From NCBI GenBank assembly GCA_965197745.1, contig CBDANS010000007.1, positions 128,001 through 192,000 of the forward strand: a DNA stretch of 64,000 nt, in the 5' to 3' direction. The notes under the pieces were generated by a model. That model made no database searches and had not been told where the DNA came from. It saw only the letters and a list, made by a program, of their open reading frames with translations. The DNA is from Opitutales bacterium. GTDB lineage: Bacteria > Verrucomicrobiota > Verrucomicrobiia > Opitutales > PNEW01. This document shows positions 22,711-33,646 of this stretch, in pieces. A program made the position numbers and the translations under genes. Within the stretch, counting starts at the first letter, position 1. Every line of letters starts with the position of its first letter.

Positions 22711-24090
22711 TCGAGTGACCCCAAAAAATCGTATCATTTAAAGAGAGAGGTTATCGGGATAAACCGATAACTTCAATGAAAAGAAAAAGATACACAACAG
22801 AACAAATCATCGCAATATTCCGGCAAGCCGATACTGGTAAAACCGTGCAGGATGTGTCTGCGGTGGAAACAACATAAGTGAACAAACCTTCTATCGCTGG
22901 GGTAAAAAGGATGGCAGCTTGGAACTAACCGATGCGAAGCGATTTAAAGTGTTGGAAAAAGAAAACACCGAGCCTAGGTGAGAAGACCTGCCATACCGAG
23001 CTTTAGAAGCTGCTTGCTGATCAAATGCTAAAGAATCAGGTGATGGAGGAAACATTGTCTAAAAAGGGGTGAGCCCAAAGCAGAAGAAGCGAGCCGTAAA
23101 GGAGGTGGCTGAGAAAGAGCTGTGCTCGTATTGGAGGGCTTGTGCTTATCTCAGCCTCAGTAGGTCAACGTTCAGCTACCGGCCCAGGCAGGTCAATAGG
23201 AAAGCTCAGCGATTGGCCGAGCGCATTGTGGTGCTTTCCTGGGAACATCCTCGTTACGGTTACCGGTGTATCGGTGCCTTGCTGGTAAAGGAAGGGTGGA
23301 CAACAAGTAGGAAGTTTGTCCAAGCGCTACGACCTTAAGAAGGGCTGCAGGTAAAGCCCTCCGAAAAAGCGTAGACACCGTCAAGGGGTCTCTACGGGAC
23401 CTCCTACTAAAGCAACCGGTCGCAATCACGTTTGATCCTGGGACTTTGTCCATGATCGCACAGACCATGGCGGTCCCTTAAAGAGGATGACTCTGATAGA
23501 TGAATAGACGCGTCAATCCCTGCATATCCAGGTAGCTCGTCAACTCACCTCTAAGTACGTCCTCACTATTCTCAGCGAGGCCATTGAAAAGAGGGGGCAT
23601 CTCTATCCGTAGTGACAACGGCAGTGAGTTCATTGCTCATCAAGTGCAGCAGCGGTTGTCCGACAAAAACATCAAGGCGATCTATAGCGATCTGGTCAGT
23701 CCCTGGCTACCGAGCGAAGCGGCACCTCAACGAGCGATAGCGAGAATAACAAACTTTTTCATCGAGTCGTTTTACAACCGCTTACCCAATGTACCGAGGA
23801 ACGAAGTGACGACATAGCGATGCGCTCATGTTTGAACCTTGGTGTATGGCTCAGCGTAGCTGAAGCGCAAGTGGTAATCGAACAATAGCTTCAGACCTAT
23901 AATAATAAACCTCCCCACAGTCGTTTAGGCTTTAAAACTAACAAGAGTTTGTCAGATTCCTTTCCGATCTTGGATGCGTTCGGGCTACGCCCTCACTTCG
24001 CAAGGATCGCTCCTATACATCAATCCTAAAACCATTAACACCCGATAACTCTCTCACTTAAAAATTGGTACGAAAAAAGGGGTCCGATCA
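22711..24090 (+). mobile_element. IS3-family (IS407-like) element, copy 1, pseudogenised
   Basis: IRL TCGAGTGACCCCAAAAAATCGTATCA, IRR TGGTACGAAAAAAGGGGTCCGATCA; orfA/orfB fragments (HPRYGYR, WDFVHD, SDNGSEF) with stops, frameshifts and small inserts. Confidence 0.93.
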
Positions 24091-30980: not shown

Positions 30981-31157
30981 TGATCGGACCCTGTATTTCG
31001 TACCAATTTTAAGTGAGAGAGTTAGGGGGTGTTAATGGTTTTAGGATTGAAGTATAGGAGAGATCTTCGCGAAGTGAGGGTGTAGCCCGAACGCGGCCAG
31101 GATTTGAAAGGAATCTGACAAACTCTAGTGGGCTTTTAAAGCCTAAACGACTGTGGG
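30981..31157 (-). mobile_element. Right-end fragment of the same IS3 as copies 1 and 2
   Basis: Reverse complement matches the 3' end and IRR of 22711-24090 (TGATCGGACCC...GTACCA). Confidence 0.9.
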
Positions 31158-31245
31158 TCCGTTCAGGGGAGTCACGCCACCCTATCCGAGACAATCCTTT
31201 ATTCAATCGGGCTTGATCTATAAATATTTTTAACGCCGTAATTTT

Positions 31246-31908
31246 TTACCTGCGAGACAGCGCAAAAAGGTAAAGTAGATTTCCCAAGGACGCGATAAAG
31301 GCAGCCACATAGGTAAATCCTGCCGCATCCAAAGTTTTGCTTACCCCTGGGATTTCTAAAGGATCAATGATTCCCAGATTCGGCAGTTGAGCCTTAGCTC
31401 GCCTGCTCGCATCAAATTCTACAGGAAGCGTTACCAGTTGGAAGACGGTTAATACAAGATAAACAAAAATGCCCAACTTGATTAGGCCCAAGATACCAAA
31501 GAAAAAACCGCCAATAATTACAAATGGCAGCAACCGTGATGCAAAGTTTGTAATTGGAATCAGAGCCATACGAAATTGAAGCGCTTTATAACCCACTTTG
31601 TGCTGAATAGCGTGCCCAGCCTCATGGGCGGCAACACCCAAAGCCGCTAAACTCGTGCCCCTGTAATTCTCTTCACTCAAAGCAAGGCGTTTATGTACCG
31701 GATCATAATGATCGGTCAAATGACCACGAATGGCTACGATATTAACATCGTCAATGCCGGCGCTTCGCATTACATAAGCTGCAGCTTCCCGCCCGGTAAT
31801 ACGACTGCGGGAATTCACTTGAGAATATTTATTATAAGTACTGGACACCTTTGCCTGTGCCCACATACCGATAATTATAGGGATAATAATAAATAATAGA
31901 AAGTTCAT
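31246..31908 (-). CDS. Neutral zinc metallopeptidase, YugP family
   Basis: LTDHYDP, VAAHEAGHAIQH, TLPVEFDASRRA. Confidence 0.93.
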   Translation of the reverse strand: MNFLLFIIIPIIIGMWAQAKVSSTYNKYSQVNSRSRITGREAAAYVMRSAGIDDVNIVAIRGHLTDHYDPVHKRLALSEENYRGTSLAALGVAAHEAGHAIQHKVGYKALQFRMALIPITNFASRLLPFVIIGGFFFGILGLIKLGIFVYLVLTVFQLVTLPVEFDASRRAKAQLPNLGIIDPLEIPGVSKTLDAAGFTYVAAFIASLGNLLYLFALSRR

Positions 31909-32048
31909 TGCTCAATAGATATCTATACAGGGGACAGGGGATAAAACAATCTATTCCCCTATCCCACAAGTCAAGTTAAAGAGCCTCTCGATAGTAAGCG
32001 TTCAGTTACATCCTCGTATAGCCTTACTCTTTCTGAAAATTCTGGCAG

Positions 32049-33454
32049 TGGAGTGACCCCCAAAAATGGTATCATTAACAGAGAGAGGTTATGGGGATAA
32101 CCCGATAACCTCAATGAAAAGAAAAGGATATACAACAGAACAGATCATAGCAATACTGCGGCAGCCCGATACGGGCAAAACCGTGCAGGAAGTCTGCCGC
32201 GGCAACAACCTAAGTGAACAGACCTTCTATCGCTGGGGCAAAAAGTATGGCAACTTGGAGCTGGCTGATGCGAAGCGATTTAAAGAGCTGGAAAAGGAGA
32301 ATACGGAGCTGAAGAAGATGCTCGCTGATCAAATGCTCAAGCTTCGGGTGTTGGAGGAAACGCTCTCAAAAAAATGGTGAGCCCAAAGCAGAAGAAGCGA
32401 GCAGTAAAAGATGCGGCTGAGAAGGGGCTGTGCTCGTTTTAGAGGGCTTGTGCTTATCTCAGCCTCAGTTGGTCAACGTACAGCTACCGACCCAAGCAGG
32501 CCAGTAAGAAGGCTCAGCGGTTGGCCGAGCGGATTGTAACCCTGTCCTGGGAACATCCCCGCTACGGTTATCGGCGCATCCGTGCCTTGCTGGTGAAGGA
32601 AGGTTGGGCGGCGAGCAGGAAATTTGTACAGGCAGTGCGACGTTCTTCGGGCTTACAGGTAAAGCCACCAAAAAAGCGTAGACACCGTCAAGGAGTCTCT
32701 ACAGGGTCGCCTACTAAAGCAACCGGTCGCAATCACCTTTGGTCCTGGGACTTTGTCCATGATCGCACAGACCATGGCGGTCCATTAAAGATGATGACTC
32801 TGATCGATGTACCGAGGAGCTGAAAGCGACGACACTCAAGCGAAGCGAAGACATATACGCGTGAATGTCTGGATATCCGGGTCGCTCGTGAACTCACCTC
32901 ATCGGATGTCCTCTCTGTGCTTAGCGAGGCCATTGAAAAGGAGGGAGCTCCCAGCTATATCCGCAGTGATAATGGCAGTGTTCCGAGGAGCAAAGCGACG
33001 ACATGCGAAGCCATTTATCGCTCATCAAGTACAGCGGTGGTTGCGTGAAAAAAACATCAAGGCGATATATATCGATCCGGGTAGTCCCTGGCTACCGAGC
33101 GAAGCGACACCTCAACGAGCCAAAGCGAGAATAACAAACGGTTTCATCGAGTCGTTTCACAACCGCTTACGCGATGTACCGAGGAACGTAGTGACGACAT
33201 AGCGAAGCGCTCATGTTTGAACCCTGAAGTGTTGCTCAGCGTGGCTGAAGCGCAAGTTCTAATCGAACAATGGCGTCAGACCTATAACAATGAACATCCC
33301 CACCGTCGATCAGGCTTTCAAAGCCCACAAGAGTTTGTCACATTCCTTTCAGATCCTGGCCGCGCCAAGATCTCTCATATACATCAATCCTAAAACCATT
33401 TACACCCGGTAACTCTCTCACTTAATAATTGGTACGAAAAACGGGGTCCGATCA
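32049..33454 (+). mobile_element. IS3-family (IS407-like) element, copy 2; orfA intact, orfB interrupted
   Basis: IRL TGGAGTGACCCCCAAAAATGGTATCA, IRR ...GGGGTCCGATCA; orfA 32114-32380 ends at A7 slippery site (KKW); orfB has a stop near 32440 and four hairpin inserts. Confidence 0.95.
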
Positions 33455-33646
33455 CCAGTGCCAGGCCGCTCCCGCAAAATAATTACGGTCATCTTGAACG
33501 AACCTGAATTTATTATATCTTCCCTTTTCCCCCCGGAAACTTTTAAGCTCCTCTGTCTTCTCTTGAAACGCTTCATTTCGTCGAAGTAATTCCCATACCT
33601 TCGCCGGTATGCCGTCCTCACAGGGATTGTAGACTGGTAAGTTCAT
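33455..33646 (-). pseudogene. Truncated gene with WELLRRN motif (DUF6499-like), cut by IS3
   Basis: ORF runs into the IS3 IRR; WE(F/L)LRRN is a motif I associate with ICE regulators. Confidence 0.4.

Follow-up and report, generated by a model that had tools for sequence, protein, structure and literature searches.

How does an IS3-family insertion sequence in an Opitutales bacterium come to carry four short hairpin segments, each lodged in a conserved codon of its transposase gene? We approached this question in a 64,000-nucleotide stretch of DNA, referred to here as the window, whose source genome (G000) comprises 4.45 Mb in 7 contigs and contains 34 full-length copies of the element, designated IS-A, that we aligned. 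The copy under study (copy 2 of an earlier, sequence-only reading) occupies positions 32047-33454 of the + strand, with ends 5'-TGGAGTGACCCC...GGGGTCCGATCA-3'; its termini read TGGAGTGACCCC...GGGGTCCRATCA and display the 5'-TG...CA-3' expected of the IS3 family. Its orfA (32066-32380, + strand) matches the HTH_Tnp_1 profile with an E value of 8e-19 and terminates next to an A7 run (32368-32374), which we take to be the -1 frameshift point as in IS3 elements. For the orfB pieces, matches were obtained to HTH_21, rve (E 1e-5 over profile positions 33-76) and rve_3, with the rve match falling under the curated cut-off because the orfB piece is only 42 aa long. This segment is an IS3-family insertion sequence with a helix-turn-helix orfA and an orfB bearing the rve/DDE core. 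A diverged IS-A copy (copy 1; 78% identity) lies at 22713-24076 of the + strand, and a 3'-end fragment of a further copy lies at 30981-31206 of the - strand, inverted relative to copy 2. Between this fragment and copy 2, a 220-aa open reading frame with an HEAGH motif (31246-31908, - strand) probably encodes a zinc metallopeptidase.

When the flanks of the 34 copies were read by eye, 4-bp target duplications (CTTT, TTGC, GACT, CAGC, TTCC and CTCA) were found at at least 6 of them, and several other copies had none. An in-frame TAG stands in orfB at 32440-32442 (+ strand), where the sequence is TCG TTT TAG against TCG TTG CGR elsewhere. This stop is shared by 20 of the 34 copies, the window's own included, and by several copies in the related genomes G001 and G002; the intermediates TTTCGG and TTTTGG occur as well. 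Two further variants concern the element itself. At about 32268-32274, the native orfA sequence GATGCGAAGCGAT includes a GCGAAGC mini-hairpin that reads GATGCTCTAGCGAT in some copies of G000, G001 and G002, with the loop swapped, one base added and the orfA frame shifted. Near the 3' end of orfB (about 33363-33364), the window copy lacks 22 nt (about GCGTTCGGGCTACGCCCTCACT) that are present in others.

The interruptions of orfB lie where the sequence-only reading had placed them, as T...C segments at 32810-32852, 32981-33012, 33093-33135 and 33177-33212, with an A directly after each. Counted with this A, and all on the + strand, insert 1 (32810-32853; 44 nt, net +42) falls in the E codon of LID-E-YTREC and gives TGA when read in frame; insert 2 (32981-33013; 33 nt, net +31) falls in the E codon of DNGS-E-F and shifts the frame; insert 3 (33093-33136; 44 nt, net +42) falls in the Q codon of PW-Q-NG and is open in frame; and insert 4 (33177-33213; 37 nt, net +35) brings a TAG and a frameshift to the E codon of RD-E-CL. 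The 34-copy alignment resolves each insert into a clean presence/absence block, and the empty alleles of sites 1-4 (GATG-AA-TAT, GTG-AG-TTC, TGGC-AAAAC and GATG-AG-TGT) encode D-E-Y, S-E-F, W-Q-N and D-E-C without a gap. At all sites, the filled allele consists of N + (T...C) + A + next codon and the empty allele of N + AR + next codon. The simplest boundary rule is that 5'-TWCC...CA-3' replaces an AR dinucleotide, which is equivalent to one base being replaced and one substituted. No filled allele equals its empty allele plus the insert, and since two target bases are replaced, plain excision is unable to give back GAA/GAG or CAA. A target duplication is absent at every insert site, as had been claimed. 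The accompanying claim that every interruption splits an NAA codon holds for sites 1 and 3, but the empty codon is GAG at sites 2 and 4. The proposed parse into N, module 1, A, module 2 and A is therefore unnecessary; it remains one option, and the data do not require two modules.

The target itself is loose. The bases upstream of the insertion sites differ (GATG, AGTG, TCCG, TGGC, CTGG), the replaced AR is preceded by G, C or A, and the common denominator, [TG][GC]/AR/[TA] with slashes at the boundaries, does not on its own explain the repeated hits on the same codons. The motif shared by the inserts, CCGAG-N(3-18)-GACGACA, has 4 occurrences in the window where 0.04 would be expected, a count that 0 of 100 shuffles attained. 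The hairpin strand coincides with the sense strand at 7 of 8 genic insertion sites. T(A/T)CCGAG, the motif on the 5' side of the inserts, is also found natively in orfA of IS-A at a fifth site, site 0 (AATACCGAGCTGAAG, about 32300-32314), and in native coding sequence at site 2 of a second element, IS-B (GGTTCCGAGTTT); these occurrences may reflect chance or mark a recognition site.

Across the 34 IS-A copies, site 1 is filled in 28, site 2 in 32, site 3 in 10 and site 4 in 8, and the combined states are {1,2} in 23 copies, {1,2,3,4} in five, {2,3} in three, {3,4} in two and {2,4} in one. Uninterrupted relatives supply the reference state. In genome G097, two copies of a homologous IS (L180 and L182) encode LIDEHTR, DNGSEF, PWQNG and RDECL in a single open frame, and four IS-B copies in the source genome align without gaps to the G097 protein over 295-296 residues. 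These close homologues establish that the segments were inserted and are not native coding sequence, as the sequence-only reading had held. Two other G097 copies (L183 and L184) are otherwise open, but TAA stands where PW-Q-NG has its Q codon, the one that receives insert 3 elsewhere. Independent assemblies contain the inserts too, as do DNA and RNA contigs from public runs, which excludes an assembly artefact.

The same inserts reach well beyond IS-A, with site-specific inserts common to at least four diverged IS3 lineages. IS-B, whose protein is about 44% identical to the G097 homologue and whose ends differ from those of IS-A, carries an identical site-2 insert in 30+3 copies, and a few of its copies have an antisense unit at the frameshift site. 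IS-C contains inserts 1, 2 and 3, insert 4 occurs in IS-D and one other lineage, and a variant of insert 1 occurs in one further IS3 lineage. Distant IS3 relatives in the source genome (about 36% identity) have no inserts. Related modules also interrupt an IS66-like gene (PLYSL-E-KILG) and a zinc-ribbon gene in other genomes, at G/AA and C/AR. At site 0 in orfA, a net addition of 27 nt is found in the main IS lineage of G002 (about 30 copies of 1330 nt, state {0,1}). One G002 copy, L157, is set apart from L159/L167 by the site-0 insert and by 2-3 of 1255 nt, so that gain or loss at site 0 must be very recent. The diverged window copy at 22713-24076 is empty at sites 1 and 2 and filled at sites 3 and 4, and its orfA carries a 28-nt insert homologous to that of site 0 in G002. 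The mosaic states and the recurrence of the same codons in diverged elements bear out the earlier impression of mobile-looking mini-elements at conserved transposase codons. A random scatter through genes was also not seen: in a hairpin-filtered list for the source genome, genic hits fall only in IS3-family transposase genes, at four to five fixed sites. A scan for further interrupted genes by restoration of open reading frames gave too much noise.

Outside transposases, the inserts have many relatives. The general module form is 5'-T(A/T)CCGA, a hairpin with tandem G.A closing pairs, GACA, a second small GC-clamped hairpin and ...CA-3'. Its first part, TACCGA-hairpin-GACA, is a common unit of intergenic repeats and arrays in the source genome, where the same hairpin units also make up a REPIN- or MITE-like family of inverted repeats with TTGTCATTGCGAGG ends (for example C7:1584117-1584330 and C6:654300-654560; about 166 half-sites counted). 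A search for an autonomous partner of this family led to four longer intervals that contain ordinary genes. Many solo units adjoin tandem heptamers such as CGCAATC or CGCATTC. Insert 3 as a whole is an order-wide module, TACCGAG-hairpin-GACACCTCAACGAGC-loop-GCGAGAATAACA, which in other genomes also occurs outside any IS, sometimes in tandem with a 55-nt period. The site-3 pattern was found in 12 of 301 sampled Opitutales (Verrucomicrobiota) genomes, with 0 matches for the control, and in 94 stretches of a species-representative genome collection; all 80 titles listed of those 94 name Opitutales, Opitutaceae, Puniceicoccaceae, Coraliomargarita, Pelagicoccus or Verrucomicrobia. A metagenome collection yielded 11 stretches with this pattern, viral contigs 0 matches to the site-3 module, and metagenome contigs 0 matches to the site-2 pattern. 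In G097, the module is rare (1 match) and the homologous IS is mostly uninterrupted.

In hairpin 1, a constant frame, G-GA...GA-C, encloses inner pairs that covary between loci as GC/GC, AC/GT and AT/AT (GGAGC/GCGAC, GGAAC/GTGAC and GGAAT/ATGAC), and these compensatory changes are what supports the hairpin. Elsewhere, whole hairpin-1 stems are exchanged for GCCCGCAGGGC, GGCGTTTACGCC or GCGCGTAGCGC, and variant positions in the IS-borne inserts fall mainly in loops. The exceptional stability that had been attributed to the hairpins did not emerge from DNA folding energies, with z scores of +0.9 to +1.5 for three inserts and -0.9 for site 4, values calculated with nearest-neighbour DNA parameters that take no account of GNA triloops or sheared G.A pairs.

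The inserts and the genes around them contrast in their divergence. Synonymous divergence among IS-A lineages is 0.12-0.31 overall; between sites 1 and 2, it reaches 0.52 in a comparison of two lineages that share inserts 1 and 2 in identical form. More generally, IS lineages share identical inserts even though 27-52% of the synonymous sites in their flanks differ. This implies either that the inserts arrived at the same codons after the lineages split or that they are under near-total constraint. Chimeras of IS-A and IS-B (C7:1673295 and L148) have their junctions at inserts and show that the inserts act as recombination points. The bases directly before insert 2 differ between IS-A and IS-B (GGCAGTG against GGTTCCG), and simple homologous conversion therefore explains the sharing poorly. 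Fourteen near-identical {1,2} copies carry the TAG stop, from which it follows that broken copies get mobilised in trans.

The observation itself is real, non-random and unusual, and our best reading is that the inserts represent an undescribed miniature hairpin insertion element. We infer its mobility mechanism, single-strand state and effect on transposition. On this reading, each insertion replaces AR and disrupts the transposase reading frame, through either a stop or a frameshift. We propose further that a trans-acting factor might recognize the conserved backbone and hairpin and place the module; that IS copies carrying inserts could then multiply as non-autonomous elements; and that inserts might pass between IS copies by descent and recombination. 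Those inserts that sit in DNA encoding conserved motifs would be the ones able to reach diverged IS lineages. That the inserts form a family of non-coding miniature repeats, each a two-hairpin module of 27-44 nt, inserted as DNA and spread along these lines, is a proposition for which we see the case as evenly balanced. Counting against it are the lack of any insert-free IS-A copy, the nine {1,2} copies that are otherwise open, the sharing of identical inserts between families with different adjacent bases and the looseness of the target. More tentatively, the modules could constitute a new ultra-small (27-44 nt) hairpin class in which each variant returns to one conserved transposase codon (of IS3 elements here and of IS66 elsewhere) and replaces AR.

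The rival that survives best regards the inserts as tolerated, intron- or switch-like gene parts that are skipped, removed or reversed, leaving the IS autonomous and its transposition throttled. We consider it unlikely, though much of the evidence is in keeping with it. No insert-free IS-A exists among the 34 copies of the source genome or the 14 copies inspected in G001 and G002, and the length expected of an empty IS-A (about 1263 nt) is missing from the match tables of the three genomes; no transposase source for IS-A has consequently been identified. Copies with inserts have multiplied in bursts (23 {1,2} copies in G000, about 30 {0,1} copies in G002), and at least 6 of them have clean 4-bp target duplications, which argues for bypass, reversal or an unseen helper. 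When the inserts are masked, orfB is fully open in the nine {1,2} copies without the TAG, and dN/dS among IS-A lineages stays within 0.13-0.36 for every segment, even downstream of the frameshifting inserts. The preservation of insert sequence outside the loops and the agreement of hairpin strand with sense strand at 7 of 8 genic sites point the same way. However, removal of an insert yields N-A or N-CA and never NAR, a reading of the four sites by eye revealed no matched take-off and landing codons, and Rfam contains no relevant match to window positions 31900-33600 at E up to 5 or, at E up to 1, to three loci from other genomes. Lineages with the TAG stop have multiplied too, and mobilisation in trans must accordingly occur. 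The four intact IS-B copies that persist next to 30 hit ones also speak against bypass.

RNA contigs bear on this tolerated-part explanation from both sides. They were assembled from two public metatranscriptome runs on other samples, with no DNA from the same samples. One contig of 725 nt reads through insert 1 and one of 258 nt reads through inserts 2 and 3, which shows that inserts persist in RNA-library contigs. Another is empty at sites 2, 3 and 4 (AG, A and AG instead) on flanks 97-99% like the window copy, and among the public-run contigs the empty site-2 joint is confined to the two RNA runs. DNA alleles that are empty at sites 2-4 are nevertheless present in G001 and G002 (L153 and L157), and given this and the lack of same-sample DNA, the empty RNA contigs are not evidence of removal at the RNA level. 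In answer to the search for precisely excised alleles that the sequence-only reading had suggested, the empty alleles seen in RNA are indistinguishable from DNA alleles, and inserts 1-3 are retained.

A second alternative is that a host- or element-encoded system aims the modules at conserved transposase motifs to silence IS3-type (and IS66-type) elements, which strikes us as improbable. It would account for the confinement of genic hits in the source genome to fixed sites of IS3-family transposases in at least four lineages, for the fact that 34 of 34 IS-A copies are hit, for the sparing of the distant IS3 relatives with about 36% identity and for the mostly uninterrupted homologous IS of G097, where the module is rare. 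Against it, hit copies kept multiplying, intergenic repeats are rich in the same modules, and four intact IS-B copies persist in the source genome alongside 30 that are hit. A candidate enzyme or guide was not found either: guide-like pairing can be dismissed, with the longest exact match between an insert and its 30-nt flanks (direct or reverse-complement) at 4-5 nt, the level of shuffled sequence, and no mobilising enzyme for the modules was found in the source genome. The link to an HUH/RAYT gene raised by the sequence-only reading did not materialise, since the sole Y1 hit in that genome (PF01797, 46 bits, C6:163380-163706) has no TACCGAG units visible in the flanking stretch that was read. 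The failure to find a mobilising enzyme also counts against our preferred reading, as does the absence of replication-strand bias among 113 non-IS units (positive-skew part of C7, 24 + and 21 -; negative-skew part of C6, 20 + and 23 -).

The last alternative, under which the segments would belong to the native coding sequence, resemble one another by chance or stem from errors of sequencing or assembly, is refuted: insert 3 happens to be open in frame, but G097 and IS-B hold uninterrupted homologues, inserts 1 and 4 bring stops and inserts 2 and 4 frameshifts, four motif occurrences stand against 0.04 expected, and independent assemblies and run contigs contain the inserts.

Our preferred reading, an undescribed miniature hairpin insertion element, invites comparison with several known systems. 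The translational bypass elements, such as those of phage T4 gene 60 and the 'byps' of Magnusiomyces mitochondria, are likewise hairpin-forming inserts of 27-55 nt in coding sequence that stay in the mRNA, but the matched take-off and landing codons of such elements were not found here. A MITE of a DDE transposon can be set aside, as neither terminal inverted repeats nor a target duplication is present at any site. IS200/IS605 elements and their miniatures transpose as single strands, with end hairpins, a fixed tetra- or pentanucleotide target and seamless excision. The present inserts resemble them in having a hairpin at each end and in lacking both a target duplication and DDE-type inverted terminal repeats; they differ in having no fixed target, in the loss of two bases, in an excision that would not be seamless and in their size of 27-44 nt, and the source genome offers no IS200-type TnpA beyond the weak PF01797 hit and no strand bias.

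Palindromic elements of Rickettsia are non-coding stem-loop repeats of 20-40 nt that are mostly intergenic and also occur inside genes. The in-frame type, whose length is a multiple of three and which is translated, differs from the inserts described here, with their net lengths of 31 and 35 nt (inserts 2 and 4) and the TGA and TAG of inserts 1 and 4. In Nostoc, Elhai and co-workers reportedly described, in 2008, small dispersed repeats of 21-27 nt that are apparently mobile, have hairpin potential, are nested in other repeats and stand beside tandem heptamers. Tiny size, nesting and heptamer neighbours, as seen for many intergenic units here, are shared features; the phylum and the sequence are different, and we know of no site-specific hits of the Nostoc repeats on conserved transposase codons.

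The closest described counterparts are intragenic REPs. In the survey by Di Nocera et al. (2013; PMC3733652), REPs are non-coding stem-loops of 20-40 nt that are mostly intergenic and also found inside genes, the intragenic ones are palindromes tagged with GTAG or CGTC, and TGTC is a listed variant of the CGTC tag. The modules described here are alike in size, in the absence of coding capacity and in a mainly intergenic distribution with some genic members, and on the reverse strand they start with TGTC, like the CGTC-tag variant. However, REP stems there have 8-9 bp, whereas those here have 2-5 Watson-Crick pairs plus G.A pairs. Set beside the REP/RAYT description, a palindrome tagged GTAG or CGTC whose stem spans 5-13 bp, the units here offer a TGTC tag on the reverse strand together with far shorter, G.A-dependent stems. 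The RAYT gene flanked by repeats that this description calls for has no counterpart beyond the one PF01797 hit with its unit-free flanks. Relative to the intragenic REPs described there, the modules combine two different hairpins with a long conserved backbone, and the inserts are out of frame (31 and 35 nt) or stop-bearing, replace two bases and recur at the same transposase codons. Full-text literature searches listed no description of such inserts; the intragenic REPs of Opitutus terrae in the supplements of PMC3733652 may bear on their novelty.

Should a distinct class exist, it would imply a writing machinery, possibly one that also bypasses or reverses its products, or a new conflict between elements or between host and transposon. 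If machinery places the inserts, they would represent a new way to aim DNA at a short site; if the inserts are bypassed, they would represent a new form of bacterial gene expression control. Either way, the system is directly testable with the copies found here. Very small genic repeats are known, and we found none described that recur at fixed conserved codons in several transposase lineages that have diverged. What makes the present inserts unusual is that they replace two bases, remain identical while their flanks diverge and occur in every copy of an IS that is still multiplying.
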